The notes below the pieces were generated by a model that saw only the letters and a program-made list of their open reading frames with translations, made no database searches and had not been told where the DNA came from. A DNA stretch of 64,000 bases from an uncultured Acidobacteriota bacterium (GTDB lineage Bacteria > Acidobacteriota > Thermoanaerobaculia > Gp7-AA8), in contig CAWGHO010000001.1 of assembly GCA_963822445.1 (NCBI GenBank), positions 992,001-1,056,000 on the forward strand. The letters are read 5' to 3'. The stretch's first letter is position 1. Each line of letters starts with the position of its first letter. Shown here one piece after another: positions 34,593-39,197 of this stretch. Made by a program: the position numbers and the translations under genes.

Positions 34593-35330
34593 ATGCGAAA
34601 AACACTCGCGGCCGCTTTGTTCGCCGCGGTATTGATTCCCACGCAGAAGGCACAGGCGCTCGATAACGAAGCGCTGCTCGCGCTCGTGGCTATGCCGCTC
34701 GCCGTAGCGGCTGTTTCGGAAGTAACCGACGTCCCGATGAACGACCTCATCGACGTCGTCACGCTGATGAACGATGCCCTCGTTCCGCCGGCGCAGTTCA
34801 TCGAAGTCGTCAGGTACGCGCCCGTGGCGCTGGTCGTCGACACGCAGGTACCTCGCTTTCCGGAGTACGTTCGCGTTCAGTTCGACAGCGGTCTCCGCGG
34901 TACGGAGCTGGTGAGCTCGATCGAGGATCGCTATCACATCTATGGAGTGGAAGGCGTCAACTTCGACGTCGTGGCGCCGCGGGTCGTGGACATCGAGGAC
35001 GACTTCGTCCCGCAGATCGTTCACACACGCATCGCCGAGCGGAAAGCCCACCCTCACGGCGGGCCCCCGGGACAGCTCAAGAAGTCGATGGGCGTGCAAA
35101 CCGGAGCGGAAGTCGTTCACGGAACGCGGAAGGGCAAGAGCAACGACCGCGTCGTGACGCGTGTCGTCGAGGACCGGCCTGCGAAGGTCGCGAAGGAACA
35201 CAAGGTCAAGCATCAGGACAAGCCCGTGGTGGCCAAAGCGAAGGGCCGCGGCTCGTCGGATGACCACAAGAACCAGGGTGGCGGCCATGGCGGCGGTCAC
35301 GGCAAAGGCAAAGGAAAGGGCAAGGGATGA
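34593..35330 (+). CDS. Secreted hypothetical protein with PPGQLKK motif and G/K/H-rich tail
   Basis: GGAGG RBS, signal peptide, HPHGGPPGQLKK. Confidence 0.7.
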   Translation: MRKTLAAALFAAVLIPTQKAQALDNEALLALVAMPLAVAAVSEVTDVPMNDLIDVVTLMNDALVPPAQFIEVVRYAPVALVVDTQVPRFPEYVRVQFDSGLRGTELVSSIEDRYHIYGVEGVNFDVVAPRVVDIEDDFVPQIVHTRIAERKAHPHGGPPGQLKKSMGVQTGAEVVHGTRKGKSNDRVVTRVVEDRPAKVAKEHKVKHQDKPVVAKAKGRGSSDDHKNQGGGHGGGHGKGKGKGKG

Positions 35331-35632
35331 GAGCACGTACATTCGCACTCGTTCTGATGCTGGCGCTCGCCGCCGCGTGCAGTAACGAGCAGAAAGCCAC
35401 GAATACGACCGAGGCCACGACTCCGCAGGCGACGGCGAAGGCCGCCGACCTGACGCCGGAGCAGCTGGGCGAGCTGGGTGCGCAGATCCGGAAGGAGCCC
35501 TCGCGCGCCGACGAGTTGCTTGCCCAGAAGGGGCTGAATGCAGCCACGTTCGAGAAGGCGATTCGCGACGTAACCGAGAATCCGGAGTCGTCGAAGCGGT
35601 ATGCCGAGGCCTATCGGAAGGCCAGCGCCTGA
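35327..35632 (+). CDS. Small lipoprotein, hypothetical
   Basis: LALAAAC lipobox; ATGA overlap with upstream gene. Confidence 0.7.
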   Translation: MRARTFALVLMLALAAACSNEQKATNTTEATTPQATAKAADLTPEQLGELGAQIRKEPSRADELLAQKGLNAATFEKAIRDVTENPESSKRYAEAYRKASA

Positions 35633-35700
35633 CGCTGTCCTTCGTGCAGGACAGAATACGGGTGTAGGGACGCCTATGCGTTCCTTCATGAAAAAATCGC

Positions 35701-35729
35701 TTGCGGCGAGCTATCTTGCCGTCGATAAT
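35701..35729 (+). promoter_or_regulatory. Putative sigma70-type promoter for the TPR gene
   Basis: TTGCGG-N17-GATAAT ending 10 nt before ATG 35740. Confidence 0.45.
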
Positions 35730-35739
35730 CCGGATCGGA

Positions 35740-37083
35740 ATGTCGCATTACGACGACGAAGCGCTGTTTCAGTACGCGGAAGGCACATCGCCTATCTCGA
35801 CAGAGATCGCGTCTCACGTCGCGGCGTGTGACCGTTGCTCCTCGGAGCTCGGCACGCACCGCGACGTCGTCGAGGCGCTCCGAAGCGACGACATGTGGCA
35901 GGATCCTGCACCAGCGCCGCGGCAGTTCGTCGTCGACGTAGTGGAGTTCGCCGACCGCGCCCGGGCCGAGGATCTGCAGGCGGCCGAGCTGTGTACGGAC
36001 GTTCTTTCCGGTCCGGCCTCCTGGTGGCCGCAGCGCCTCCGGAAGCACGACAACTTCCGGACCGCTGGCATGGTCCGCCAGCTCCTCGAGCGGATGCGCG
36101 AGCTACTGGGCAGTTCCCCCGCGAACGCGTTGCAGGTCACGGCGATGGCCATCGACATCGCCAACTCCCTTCCGGTGACCGAGTATCCCTGCGACTACGT
36201 CGTGAAGCTTCGGGCCCAGGCCTACCGCGATCACGCGTACGTCCTGTCGTTCATGGGCCGCTATCCCGAGGCATTGGAGATCGCGGACCGGGCCAAGAGG
36301 CTGTTCGATCAGGTGCCCCTGCCGGAGTACGACCTCGCGCGACTGGCGCAGGTCCGGGCGTCGATCCTTCGATGCATCGACCGCGTCGACGAATCCGTAA
36401 TCCTCGCCCGCCAGGCAGCCGAAACATTTCTGAAGTTCGGCGATCACTCCCGCTACGCGAACGCGCGAGTCATCGAAGCGGCGATGGTGTTCGAGACCGG
36501 TGACCTTCGTTCCGCGCTCGAAATCTGGCACGGCATCGAGAACGATCCCGGGCTCGACAGCGTCACCCGCATCGGCGTCATTCAGAACATCGGCGTCTGC
36601 TATCGCGATCTTGGGGAGCTCGATCGCGCCGTGGAACATCTGCGCCGTTGCGCGGACGAATACGAAATTCTGGGCATCCACACCGACCGAACACGATCCC
36701 GCCGGAATCTCGGCCAGACCCTGGTGCGCGCCGGCCGTTACGCGGACGCCATCCCGGTTCTGCGGCAGACCTGGCAGGAGTTCGAGAAACTCGACCTCGT
36801 CGCCGATGCTGCGTTGTCGGCGCTCGAGCTGGCCGAGGCCCTGCTGTTAGATGGCAAGCCGTCGGAAGTACCGGCCATCTGCCGAGAAATCGTGGCTCAG
36901 TTCACGCGCGCGGGAATGACTTCGCGGGCGATCACTGCCCTGTCCTTTCTGCGCGAGGCAGTCGCGTTGGGGCAGGCGAACCCGAGCCTCGTTCGTCATG
37001 TGCATGACTTTCTGCGAGAGCTCCCAGCCGAGCAGCCTCGCCTGTTCGCACCGCCTCCCGGCGGCGGCAGCTACGACCAGTAG
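35740..37083 (+). CDS. TPR-repeat protein with N-terminal zf-HC2 (anti-sigma-like) zinc finger
   Basis: MSHYDDEALFQY..HVAACDRC; TPR-like helices (MGRYPEALEI, NIGVCYRDLGELDRAVEHL, NLGQTLVRAGRYADA). Confidence 0.8.
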   Translation: MSHYDDEALFQYAEGTSPISTEIASHVAACDRCSSELGTHRDVVEALRSDDMWQDPAPAPRQFVVDVVEFADRARAEDLQAAELCTDVLSGPASWWPQRLRKHDNFRTAGMVRQLLERMRELLGSSPANALQVTAMAIDIANSLPVTEYPCDYVVKLRAQAYRDHAYVLSFMGRYPEALEIADRAKRLFDQVPLPEYDLARLAQVRASILRCIDRVDESVILARQAAETFLKFGDHSRYANARVIEAAMVFETGDLRSALEIWHGIENDPGLDSVTRIGVIQNIGVCYRDLGELDRAVEHLRRCADEYEILGIHTDRTRSRRNLGQTLVRAGRYADAIPVLRQTWQEFEKLDLVADAALSALELAEALLLDGKPSEVPAICREIVAQFTRAGMTSRAITALSFLREAVALGQANPSLVRHVHDFLRELPAEQPRLFAPPPGGGSYDQ

Positions 37084-37218
37084 CCGCGCCCTACGCCGCC
37101 GCCATCCCGAAAACTGTCTGCAGCGGCAAGCCGCTGAAGGGTCACTTAAAGATCAGGGGGATCTATGCGTCCATCGTCCGTCGATCAATCACTCAACCGT
37201 TCACAGAAGGAGAAAGTC

Positions 37219-37416
37219 ATGCGTAAATCATTCGTCGCCAGCGTCGCCATCGTCACCATCCTCGCCATTGCCACCCCTGCCGCCGCCGCGTCCCGCGATC
37301 GTGATCGCGATTCCGTGTCGGTCGTCAAGTTCCTAAAGAGCGTGGCGAAGAAGGTCTTCGGAATTCAGCCGTCAGCCGACATCGTCATCCCCATCCCCGC
37401 TCCGGATAAGCCGTAA
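37219..37416 (+). CDS. Small secreted propeptide (65 aa)
   Basis: AAGGAG RBS; Sec signal MRKSFVASVAIVTILAIATPAAAA; mature part ends ADIVIPIPAPDKP. Confidence 0.75.
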   Translation: MRKSFVASVAIVTILAIATPAAAASRDRDRDSVSVVKFLKSVAKKVFGIQPSADIVIPIPAPDKP

Positions 37417-37425
37417 CTCGCCTCT

Positions 37426-37457
37426 CGTCCGCCGGCGCAATGACGCGCCGGCGGACG
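37426..37457. terminator. GC hairpin between convergent genes, possible bidirectional terminator
   Basis: cgtccgccggcgc-aatgac-gcgccggcggacg; no clear U-tract. Confidence 0.5.
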
Positions 37458-37466
37458 GCCGTTCGT

Positions 37467-38291
37467 TCATGCCTGTCTGCCCCGGAATCGCCGGGCGACG
37501 GTCCAAACCGCCGCCAGCAGCAGCGCCATCATGCCGCAGACCGGGACCACGTAAATCACGATCCAGATCGCCGCGGCCGCGAAAGTCCGCAAGGCGCCGA
37601 CCAGCGCACGGCTGGCGTCCTTGACGATGACGATCGGCTGCCAGGCCTTTTCGACGACCGGTTTCGTCACCGCGTCGGGGATGACTTCGAGGCCGATGTG
37701 GGACATGGCCACGGTGTGCCCGAGGTGCTGGATGCGGCCTTTGGTCTGCTCGATCTCGCCGCGGATGGCGGTGAGCTGCTGATGGACTTCGAGGATCTCC
37801 GCGGCCTTGCGCGCGTTCTGCCGGACCGTCGTCAGCAGCTCGCGCAACTCGACTTCGGTCGCCTCGAGATTCCGCAGCCGCCCTTCGAGGTCGACGTACT
37901 CCTGGGTGACGTCCTCGCTGGACATGGTCTCGTTGTCGACGCGCCGCGCGACCTTGCGGATCGCCGCCAGCGCGGGAGTCATCGACTTGCTGGGAACGCG
38001 CAAGGTGAGGCGCGCGCGGAGCAGCTCTCCTTCACGCCAGACTTCCGAGCCGGCCACGTATCCGCCCAGGCCTTCCACGGATGCGGTGACGTCGTTCACG
38101 GCTTTGGCCGTGTCGGCCACGACGATCCGCATCGTGGCGTTGCGGACGATCTTTCGTTGCGGCGGCTGCGCGACGTTCAACGCGACGGCCGCTGAATCGG
38201 CCCGTTCTGCGACGGCGGCCGAGCGTTCCTCGGCCTTACAAGAAAAGAGAAAGATGAGAACGAACAGCGTGGCGATCTTTTTCACGCCCAT
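37467..38291 (-). CDS. DUF4349 domain lipoprotein
   Basis: LFSC lipobox; RKIVRNA, LRVP, EDVTQEYVDL, IRGEIEQ; C-terminal TM. Confidence 0.85.
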   Translation of the reverse strand: MGVKKIATLFVLIFLFSCKAEERSAAVAERADSAAVALNVAQPPQRKIVRNATMRIVVADTAKAVNDVTASVEGLGGYVAGSEVWREGELLRARLTLRVPSKSMTPALAAIRKVARRVDNETMSSEDVTQEYVDLEGRLRNLEATEVELRELLTTVRQNARKAAEILEVHQQLTAIRGEIEQTKGRIQHLGHTVAMSHIGLEVIPDAVTKPVVEKAWQPIVIVKDASRALVGALRTFAAAAIWIVIYVVPVCGMMALLLAAVWTVARRFRGRQA

Positions 38292-38321: not shown

Positions 38322-38693
38322 TCAATCGCAATCGCAATAAGCCAGGGCACGCGTGGCCACGTACTGCGGATCGACCGGCTTCAGCAGCGTTTCGTCCGCC
38401 CATGCCGCCAGTGTGCGGATCTCCGGGTCAGGATCGCCGAGGATGATCAGGCCGCATTTGACGGCTTCCCGCCGCTCGCGAAGAAAGTCGAGCGACTCGA
38501 TGCCGCGTTTCGTCGCCAGATTCACGCCCAGGAGGACGACGGAGAAGCGGCGGGCCTTCAGATGATCGATTGCGCTCCCGCCATCCGCGGCGAACGTGAC
38601 GGAGAAGTTCTGTTGGTCGAGCGTGGCGATGAGCTTCTTGCGGAACTCGTCGTCATCGTGAATCAGCAAAGCAGGACAGCTCGGTCGGACCAT
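38322..38693 (-). CDS. Stand-alone atypical receiver (REC) domain protein
   Basis: LLIHDDD, AADGGSAI, VVLLGVNL (no phospho-Asp), LLKPVD. Confidence 0.7.
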   Translation of the reverse strand: MVRPSCPALLIHDDDEFRKKLIATLDQQNFSVTFAADGGSAIDHLKARRFSVVLLGVNLATKRGIESLDFLRERREAVKCGLIILGDPDPEIRTLAAWADETLLKPVDPQYVATRALAYCDCD

Positions 38694-38696
38694 CGC

Positions 38697-39197
38697 TCAC
38701 TCCCCGCGCAAAGCCCGCGCCAGAGCCGCGCAGACCTCGTCGCCGAAGCAGGTCAGGATCACCTGTTCGATGGAAGGAGCGTCGAAGGCGCGGATCTCCC
38801 GCACGGCGATCTCCGCCGCGGCATCGATCGGGTAGCCGTACACGCCGCAACTGATGGCCGGAAAGGCGATCGTGCGCACGCCGTTCTCGACCGCGAGCCG
38901 CAGGCTGGAGCGATAGCAGGACGCCAGCAACTCCGCCTCCCCTTCCGTCCCGCCCCGCCAGACCGGCCCGACCGTGTGAATGACGAACCGGGCCGGCAAC
39001 CGATATCCACTGGTGATCCGCGCCTCGCCAGTCGGACATCCGCCGATGCGTTTGCACTCTTCGAGCAGCTCCGGACCCGCCGCACGATGAATCGCGCCGT
39101 CGACTCCACCACCGCCGCGGAGACCTTCATTGGCCGCGTTGACGATGGCGTCGACCTGCAGTTTGGTGATGTCGCCGCGGTGTACCTCGAGCTTCAC
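38697..39197 (-). CDS. ymdB: Macro domain O-acetyl-ADP-ribose deacetylase (YmdB-like)
   Basis: [38 protein letters not shown]. Confidence 0.88.

Follow-up and report, generated by a model that had tools for sequence, protein, structure and literature searches.

What could tie a cytoplasmic tetratricopeptide repeat (TPR) protein to a small exported peptide encoded just behind it? The question is raised by two genes in a 64,000-nucleotide stretch of DNA from an uncultured Acidobacteriota bacterium of the class Thermoanaerobaculia (assembly GCA_963822445.1, contig CAWGHO010000001.1, positions 992,001 to 1,056,000; this whole stretch is called the window below). The first gene (35740..37083, + strand; defined by its open reading frame (ORF), Pfam, AlphaFold2 and conservation) encodes a soluble protein of 447 residues, a putative cytoplasmic anti-sigma factor and peptide sensor in which a zinc-type N-terminus precedes a TPR superhelix. 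The second (37219-37416, +) encodes a 65-residue peptide with a signal sequence, MRKSFVASVAIVTILAIATPAAAASRDRDRDSVSVVKFLKSVAKKVFGIQPSADIVIPIPAPDKP. The answer favoured here, tentatively, is that the pair acts as a peptide-gated anti-sigma switch, resembling the RRNPP systems in its working, that is, in signalling after export. The features that a first-pass annotation had described at this locus, including a "strong" ribosome-binding site (GAAGGAG) and a closing hairpin, are all present.

Class I zinc-binding anti-sigma (ZAS) factors, among them RsrA, ChrR and RslA, are defined by a zinc motif of the form H/C ... H-x3-C-x2-C. The window protein carries this motif. Its N-terminal four-helix segment (residues 1-54; 35740..35901, +; delimited by alignment A6 and AlphaFold2, with helices at residues 6-14, 20-29, 31-48 and 50-54) holds H3, H26, C30 and C33 in the arrangement H-x22-H-x3-C-x2-C. 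The first-pass annotation had noticed the last part of it, HxxxCxxC, matched by HVAACDRC at residues 26-33, and had named it a zinc anti-sigma motif. The proposal has gained from alignment A6, in which each of the four ligands is at least 90% conserved over 40 sequences and the full motif is near-invariant. By eye, the ligands are absent from three of the six paralogues of the protein encoded in the bacterium's own genome (G000). The longest form of the ORF starts at a TTG at 35701, and the 447 residues are counted from the ATG. Kyte-Doolittle means over 19 residues reach 1.41 at most, and therefore the protein has no membrane segment and no signal sequence.

The peptide gene is equally legible. 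Its Shine-Dalgarno sequence, GAAGGAG (37206..37212, +), lies 7-13 nucleotides before the ATG. The signal sequence occupies residues 1-24 (37219..37290, +; hydropathy and alignments A3 and A7), with cleavage predicted by eye after AAA, and a 15-residue hydrophobic window at the N-terminus scores 2.51. A charged spacer (SRDRDRDS, residues 25-32) and a basic amphipathic helix (residues 33-49) follow (37291..37365, +; alignments and helical moment); the helical hydrophobic moment peaks at 0.58 over residues 35-49, and the mature peptide has 8 K+R against 5 D+E. The tail (residues 50-65, with the stop codon 37366..37416, +) contains the conserved core D54/P58/P60/P62. P60 never varies, either in alignment A3 (32 sequences) or in A7, in which the peptides of the window's orthologues are included as well; conservation of at least 90% is reached by D54 and P62 in A3 and by P58 in A7. 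In every row of both alignments the N-terminus is basic, a hydrophobic core follows and the spacer is preceded by small residues. Around the conserved positions the tails vary from locus to locus, and overall the homologous peptides are 20-42% identical to that of the window. A proline stands directly ahead of the stop codon in 27 of the 32 peptides of A3. Termination stalling at a C-terminal proline was considered as a general explanation and set aside, because long variable tails often trail the P-x-P core in the window's orthologue group.

How tightly are the two genes linked? A plain protein search with the 65-residue peptide returns only the peptide itself, and its paralogues surfaced through profiles alone. 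A profile made from the window peptide and one look-alike ORF led to a third copy in G000. In this genome all three peptide genes are found at the 3' end of a paralogous TPR gene, in two cases co-directional and in one tail-to-tail. The resulting three-sequence profile has matches in 30 of the 34 other genomes of the genus. A TPR homologue lies directly beside the peptide gene in 29 of 30 first-round loci (19 co-directional, 10 convergent), the lone exception, from another class, being a weak match that contains an in-frame stop. In all 30 of these first-round peptide genes the start codon is ATG, with a Shine-Dalgarno sequence of the GGAG type ahead of it.

The 32-sequence profile built from A3 raises the count to 134 peptide matches, including the sequences used to build the model, in 34 of the 35 genus genomes. 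The peptide gene sits at the 3' end of a homologous TPR gene, co-directional or tail-to-tail, in 129 of the 134 matches across the 35 genomes. This number is made up of 86 matches scored by coordinates (within 800 bp of one of the best 150 of 341 TPR matches), 6 from the first round and 37 found among 40 fetched regions. All 86 of the coordinate-scored peptides are at the TPR gene 3' end, 48 of them co-directional (gaps of 81-392 nucleotides) and 38 convergent (gaps of 7-563 nucleotides). The 40 regions were fetched for the other 42 matches and hold 41 of them, one of the 134 having been left unfetched. A TPR homologue lies beside 37; two regions with three matches end at a contig end, and one locus (L119) is a true orphan. 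Three unpublished genomes (G002, G025 and G042) contribute to the genus and phylum tallies and to 8 of the 134 matches, and they are the source of loci L017, L063, L073, L100, L105, L111 and L120 and of row L017 in A3 and A7. Leaving out G002 and G025 (8 matches, all adjacent) gives 121 linked matches out of 126.

The linkage is thus kept in convergent loci, even where co-transcription is impossible, as expected of a cognate pair. It spans paralogue groups whose TPR proteins are only about 30-41% identical, and it is also found in five other genera of the family (L053, L054, L056, L057 and L139). The number per genome reaches 9 for peptide genes and 41 for TPR paralogues. One locus in another genus has an unusual layout: at L057 (G141:C51:297934-302145) two TPR genes, one of them with a sigma gene upstream, converge on a single peptide gene between them.

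The window's own orthologues behave in the same way. Orthologues of the TPR gene were found at thirteen loci (59-66% identity) in metagenome-assembled genomes titled Acidobacteria gp7 or Thermoanaerobaculia, and more than 120 others at 60% identity or above occur in metagenomes, all named just "tetratricopeptide repeat protein". An ORF with a signal peptide, a helix and a P-x-P core lies downstream in 12 of the 12 orthologous loci that have downstream DNA. Nine of these peptides were found by profile and the others by eye, followed by extraction with a script. Each has a Shine-Dalgarno-type sequence, seen by eye, ahead of its ATG, and they are 20-40% identical to the window peptide. The first-pass annotation had proposed to look among homologues for a conserved adjacent small ORF with an IPxP-like tail; with 129 of 134 matches linked and 12 of 12 orthologous loci keeping the ORF, that is what homologues show. 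Some loci carry more than one copy. Locus L034, which belongs to the window's group, has two copies with the same tail, and L040 has three tandem copies with different helices and the same eight-residue tail core. Diverged tandem copies of this kind, in which the tail is kept and the helix drifts, count in favour of a peptide-gated switch.

What would such a protein control? The first-pass annotation had guessed that the output might be sequestration of an extracytoplasmic function (ECF) sigma factor. The window's paralogues lend this guess weight. In G000, four TPR paralogues have a sigma gene directly upstream. In other genomes, 24 of 27 peptide-linked TPR genes have a match to the family sigma profile directly upstream, and the linked sigma proteins have Sigma70_r2/r4 domains. 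Among the three without a match, one region is cut by a contig end; no sigma gene precedes the TPR gene at the other two, L030 and L034, the latter from the window's group. The sigma gene upstream in 24 of 27 paralogous loci makes the usual unit a sigma factor, a ZAS-TPR anti-sigma factor and an exported peptide, the roles being predicted from gene order and domains. The neighbouring ECF sigma gene typical of class I ZAS factors is thus present at paralogues and lacking at the window copy. Other families of the class also contain sigma-TPR pairs (L058-L062), with no detectable peptide alongside. Since such pairs exist elsewhere without a detectable peptide, and peptides occur in other genera of the same family, the peptide looks like an addition to an older sigma/anti-sigma pair.

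The fold of the TPR protein bears on whether it could receive a peptide. The AlphaFold2 model (mean predicted local distance difference test score, pLDDT, 88.2) consists of the four-helix N-terminal part, a disordered linker (residues 58-64) and the TPR superhelix (residues 67-427; 35938..37020, +; AlphaFold2 and Foldseek). Pfam recognizes generic TPR models only (TPR_12 at an E-value of 3e-18 and eight more above cut-off). With Foldseek against the PDB, the best matches are the peptide-binding TPR domains of LGN/Pins, at target-normalised template modelling (TM) scores of 0.72-0.79; Rap proteins are well below, at about 0.46-0.51. The first-pass annotation had also called for a co-fold of the TPR domain with tail peptides. 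Full-length TPR protein with peptide residues 26-65 scores 0.52, compared with 0.00 for the best of three controls, and three runs gave 0.52, 0.53 and 0.45 (contacts agreeing in at least 87%, partner pLDDT at least 58). The tool's own verdict is "weak support". Of 157 solved complexes in its calibration, 116 reach its mark, as do 2 of 215 mismatched pairs; at scores of 0.60 or less the passing cases are only 18 of the 157 complexes and both of these mismatches. The counts apply only roughly here, custom alignments having been used. Both the fold, predicted to be of a TPR type that binds peptides, and the weak signal of the co-fold would point in the direction of a cognate pair.

Together, these elements could work as follows. 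The 447-residue protein would stay in the cytoplasm, where its zinc-type N-terminal domain would hold an ECF sigma factor, encoded directly upstream in most paralogues and elsewhere for the window copy. The TPR superhelix would be the sensor, and the neighbouring gene would supply its cognate ligand, in the form of a pro-peptide exported through Sec. Once exported and trimmed, the peptide would yield a fragment comprising the P-x-P tail, possibly with the basic helix, which would re-enter the cell, bind in the TPR groove and change the protein's grip on the sigma factor. The output would then be release of a sigma factor, in place of the DNA-binding domain of RRNPP regulators. The anatomy of the two genes, their conserved linkage and the sigma gene beside paralogues are observed; that the peptide is exported, processed, taken up again and bound is inferred, as is the direction in which it would affect the sigma factor. 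The argument for a cognate receptor-ligand pair that feeds sigma sequestration is that the linkage is strict and independent of orientation, that it is kept across old paralogues and in a lineage without a sigma gene, and that tails are specific to their loci. A route for short peptides exists, because G000 encodes six OppA-type peptide-binding proteins.

Several observations weigh against this reading. One is the lack of a sigma gene beside the window copy. No ECF-like sigma gene is present in the 64-kb window, the sigma-profile matches on contig C1 all lying outside 992001-1056000, and within the fetched DNA a family sigma gene is found at none of the 13 orthologous loci. The N-terminus also scores under the curated thresholds for known anti-sigma domains: the NCBIfam ChrR anti-sigma model matches residues 3-102 at an E-value of 0.0025 (17.6 bits, under its cut-off of 124.5), ChrR in the PDB matches residues 3-40 at an E-value of 0.28, and no Pfam anti-sigma model matches. 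A peptide gene is detectable near only 78 of the best 150 TPR homologues listed, and the TPR family can therefore work without a peptide. Two RNA sequencing runs (about 6% of sampled words) yielded short, divergent contig pieces from relatives, with none across the peptide gene, and are uninformative on expression. Finally, nearly all of the genomes used are metagenome-assembled.

Perhaps the window copy, having lost its sigma gene, has no direct tie of this sort, the TPR protein being a scaffold with another role and the small ORF a conserved but unrelated secreted protein or untranslated. The missing sigma gene, the sub-threshold anti-sigma similarity and the uninformative RNA runs would all fit. 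However, the orthologues retain the zinc motif, and the peptide ORF is kept at all 12 orthologous loci with its Shine-Dalgarno sequence, signal and P-x-P core. Its survival at 20-40% identity argues for selection on the translated product. The TPR linkage of 129 of the 134 peptide matches is also hard to square with unrelated neighbours. This makes the absence of any tie a very unlikely explanation. The first-pass annotation had already remarked that no sigma gene is adjacent, and the remark extends from the window to its whole orthologue group, of which the sigma-less state is a derived and conserved trait. The window copy is a conserved sigma-less variant with a sigma-70-like promoter of its own, as predicted from the alignment described below.

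A second difficulty lies in the route of the peptide. The predicted mature form has 41 residues and the cell is presumably diderm, so that release, processing and re-uptake are all assumed, and a SbmA/BacA-type importer was not found in the bacterium's genome (94.7% complete). The co-fold support, weak by the calibration of the tool, counts against the switch as well. What if the TPR protein met the peptide before export? In such a secretion-coupled arrangement the TPR protein would bind the peptide in the cytoplasm. Efficient export would leave the TPR protein unoccupied, whereas when export stalled the precursor would accumulate, occupy the TPR protein and alter sigma sequestration. The logic is akin to that of regulators coupled to secretion, where the departure of a secreted partner from the cell frees a TPR chaperone. 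The precursor is the only stage of the peptide that surely shares a compartment with the soluble TPR protein, and neither re-uptake nor processing would be required. The linkage and the co-fold result fit this explanation just as well as the favoured one.

The leaders of the peptide genes might be read in the same sense. In groups A (co-directional) and B (convergent), which are sigma-linked, conservation is far higher in the leaders than in the peptides. Within the leaders lie a bipartite motif, GGT(A/G)G(G/C)..-N14-CAC(T/A)CC, and a G+C-rich palindrome, AGGGCGC(GC)GCCCTCC, which in its 3' half is complementary to the Shine-Dalgarno region, GGAGGGC(G). This palindrome/Shine-Dalgarno pair is present at 24 of 86 peptide genes, and palindrome leaders include L013:1690-1806(-), L016:1683-1775(-) and 24 further leaders. 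RNAalifold predicts a 7-bp anti-Shine-Dalgarno helix from 16 group-A leaders, with a compensatory change in 0 of 11 pairs; as a prediction without covariation, the structure is unproven. If it forms, the peptide mRNA of these groups would appear tightly controlled, as might suit a sensor of export. Nevertheless, several points make a sentinel of this kind unlikely. Up to 9 peptide genes and 41 TPR paralogues per genome, with tails that differ between loci, are hard to reconcile with a single housekeeping read-out. The signal sequences look ordinary. No Sec or YidC component is encoded next to the peptide at the places assessed, namely the window locus and groups A and B in G000.

A third competing explanation is that the peptide is not a ligand but a regulated exported effector, either membrane-active and bacteriocin-like or an envelope factor, and that the TPR protein senses something else. 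The basic amphipathic helix (moment 0.58, 8 K+R against 5 D+E) is what such an effector would have. Two further features suit a regulated product as well as they suit a signal, and thus also weigh against the peptide-gated switch. One is a promoter-like motif, GGTAGGGA(A/T)-N13-15-CACTCC, with a -35-like GGTAGG, a 17-nucleotide spacer and a -10-like CACTCC. This alternative-sigma-type motif lies at most 170 nucleotides upstream of 34 of the 86 peptide genes. It also precedes a sister-genus sigma-TPR operon (L138) and two window-type TPR genes (L044 and L049), which would fit control by the family sigma factors. The other is a gene for a DrrA-like ABC-2 exporter that immediately follows the peptide gene; 13 of the 30 first-round loci have it, each of them in group A, as immunity or export would predict.

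However, inspection of 22 regions upstream of sigma operons in groups A and B showed the motif in none. The window's group has the motif upstream of the peptide gene in 0 of 15 cases and carries no exporter of the group-A type, either at the window locus or at its orthologues, and the peptide is still kept. In addition, the best-conserved part of the peptide is the tail rather than the helix, and the strict placement at the TPR gene 3' end, in both orientations, is more usual for a cognate pair than for one of many targets. A regulated effector is therefore judged improbable, if not strongly so.

The motif has a life beyond the peptide genes. Examples in G000 are at C1:958599(-) and C3:1071052(+), and none was found in the window. 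A relaxed pattern has 52 matches in G000, many just upstream of an ATG; some are only 0-20 nucleotides away from the ORF, suggesting mRNAs with a short leader or none. Of 34 genus-mates, 33 contain the exact pattern, at 5-32 copies per genome, and one sister genus has 17 copies. The 23 genomes of the twelve other families of the class that have no match lack it altogether, and a reversed control pattern has 0-1 matches. This looks like the regulon of an alternative sigma factor. A housekeeping role for GGTAGGGA...CACTCC was rejected, since 0 of 54 tRNA upstream regions carry the motif and many show, by eye, TTGACA/TAnAAT-like boxes. One genome of the genus, G015 (99% complete), has a single TPR match, no peptide match, no promoter motif and one family-like sigma gene (E-value 1e-42), which suggests that the modules and the regulon were lost jointly.

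The exporter itself is a DrrA-like ATPase fused to an ABC-2 membrane domain and begins about 50 nucleotides after the peptide gene. Its loci are L064 (G000:C1:955856-958260(-)), L013, L014, L018-L020, L022, L023, L025, L028, L029, L033 and L035. The 5' part of the G000 copy, with the Walker A motif, is in another reading frame, as a frameshift or an assembly error would produce.

How does the favoured switch compare with systems already described? The closest comparison, drawn by the first-pass annotation, is with the RRNPP pairs. In the abstracts drawn on here, these pairs (Rap-Phr, PlcR-PapR, NprR-NprX and AimR-AimP) are described for Firmicutes and their phages, and the main-text passages of PMC10075063 and PMC9765709 make no mention of Acidobacteria, sigma factors or diderm bacteria. 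The part of the comparison that holds is the architecture: as predicted here from sequence, a cytoplasmic TPR receptor adjoins a small gene for an exported propeptide, there are several diversified pairs per genome, the propeptide gene may be on either strand and a conserved element lies near the C-terminus of the peptide. The part that does not hold is the receptor. The window system has an anti-sigma-type zinc domain instead of a helix-turn-helix (HTH) or phosphatase output, and no HTH model of Pfam or NCBIfam matches the protein. Its fold is closer to LGN than to Rap, its peptide is longer and includes a basic helix, and its host is an acidobacterium (Thermoanaerobaculia). With no HTH, a source outside the Firmicutes and a fold that is only generically TPR, with LGN above Rap, the window TPR protein is not a member of the RRNPP family.

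The resemblance to ZAS factors lies in the motif on an N-terminal helical bundle and, at the paralogues, in the position of the gene directly downstream of an ECF-type sigma gene; like RsrA, the window protein is soluble. The differences are at its other end and in its surroundings. The C-terminal sensor is a TPR superhelix of 360 residues, whereas known ZAS factors have a cupin domain, a membrane anchor or no such part. A dedicated peptide gene is attached, the window copy has no sigma gene, and its similarity to ZAS models is below their curated cut-offs. TPR repeats have a precedent as the regulatory part of ECF systems: according to passages of the ECF classification of Casas-Pastor et al., there are ECF sigma groups with tetratricopeptide parts, and undescribed soluble anti-sigma variants probably exist. 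In those groups the TPR is on the sigma factor or on a FecR-like protein, whereas here it is on a ZAS-type anti-sigma domain; the passages, with supplements outside their scope, make no mention of a companion peptide. LGN and Pins (3sf4, 4a1s and 6hc2) share with the window protein an eight-repeat superhelix, and in these structures long extended peptides are wrapped in the inner groove. They are eukaryotic polarity proteins at 14-17% identity, and the resemblance is one of fold only.

The peptide has its own parallels. Secretion monitors such as SecM, MifM and VemP are small ORFs with an N-terminal export signal and a proline-containing C-terminal motif, and the window-type ORF shares this outline. 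The monitors differ in what follows: no Sec or YidC gene comes after the peptide in the window or in groups A and B of G000. The window peptide gene is followed by a hairpin and a convergent gene, and in orthologues the P-x-P core often has a long variable tail behind it. The cationic, amphipathic character of the window peptide would also suit a Sec-exported bacteriocin; an ABC-2 exporter is linked in one orthologue group only, and not at the window locus. No published description of a ZAS-TPR anti-sigma factor with a companion peptide was found in abstracts and in passages of PMC7826278, PMC10075063 and PMC9765709, supplements being outside this scope. The family may be the first pheromone system with an intracellular TPR receptor and a neighbouring propeptide outside the Firmicutes, present in uncultured soil Acidobacteriota and wired to ECF sigma factors through a zinc anti-sigma domain, with several pairs per genome, pherotype-like P-x-P tails and, at many loci, a lineage-specific alternative-sigma promoter ahead of the peptide gene that would close an auto-induction loop; this is a possibility that we hold to be doubtful as it stands.

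The matter is of interest beyond this locus. Pairs of ECF sigma and anti-sigma factors are among the major signalling devices of bacteria. The inputs of soluble anti-sigma factors are mostly unclear, and a hard-wired peptide partner would give one family a defined input. If the peptide is a signal, signalling through cytoplasmic TPR proteins would extend to an abundant and almost uncultured diderm phylum of soil and would acquire a new output, the release of a sigma factor. If instead one of the competing explanations is true, the family would keep its interest, as a new kind of regulator coupled to secretion or as a new class of exported peptides that have regulators dedicated to them. With many pairs per genome, short conserved tails and compact proteins, binding tests with synthetic peptides are feasible without culturing.

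Several further elements surround the two genes. A sigma-70-like promoter region of the TPR gene (35686..35717, +), with a -35-like block and a -10-like block, GCTATCTT, is proposed from an alignment by eye of the 150 nucleotides upstream of 12 orthologous genes, among which it appears conserved; a strict consensus scan of the locus called no sigma-70 promoter. In the spacer between the TPR and peptide genes lies an inverted repeat, CAGCGG-N4-CCGCTG (37121..37136, +; centroid fold). By eye, it recurs in 9 of 12 printed orthologous spacers (8 exact, 1 with one mismatch), with a loop of 4-7 nucleotides that varies in length and sequence, and a copy also precedes the first L034 peptide. Possible roles are those of an attenuator, a processing site or an operator. 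Rfam has no known RNA family at the window locus or at four leader-bearing loci (E-values up to 1). Behind the peptide gene, a G+C-rich hairpin (37427..37456; fold energy) has a 12-bp G+C stem and a folding energy of -33.9 kcal/mol (z = -3.79, equalled by 0 of 200 shuffles); it has no T tract, and a terminator scan did not call it.

Upstream, a gene for a 101-residue putative lipoprotein (35327..35632, +), recognized by weak matches to lipoprotein models and by a hydrophobic segment ending in Cys, directly precedes the TPR gene. A similar ORF of about 100 residues is upstream of the TPR gene in L039, L043 and L048. Before it lies a gene for a 245-residue protein (34593..35330, +) with an N-terminal signal-like segment and no Pfam or NCBIfam match; in L041, L043 and L048 a homologous ORF lies ahead of the lipoprotein and TPR genes. 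This secreted-protein gene and the small lipoprotein gene are thus syntenic in part of the window's orthologue group. On the other side, the hairpin separates the peptide gene from a convergent gene for a DUF4349 protein (37467-38291(-), E-value 7e-43), the N-terminus of which is signal-like and the C-terminal part of which has a hydrophobic segment. Beyond it are a gene for a stand-alone response-regulator receiver domain (38322-38693(-), E-value 1.6e-11) and an ORF that is macro-domain-like by eye (38697-39197(-)). Elsewhere in G000, several tRNA genes are flanked by short tandem-like repeats, in which units of 7-8 nucleotides (such as TTTTCAA or GCAGAAT) form inverted arrays; examples lie upstream at C2:1378746, C2:1396715, C3:620543 and C3:1470445.

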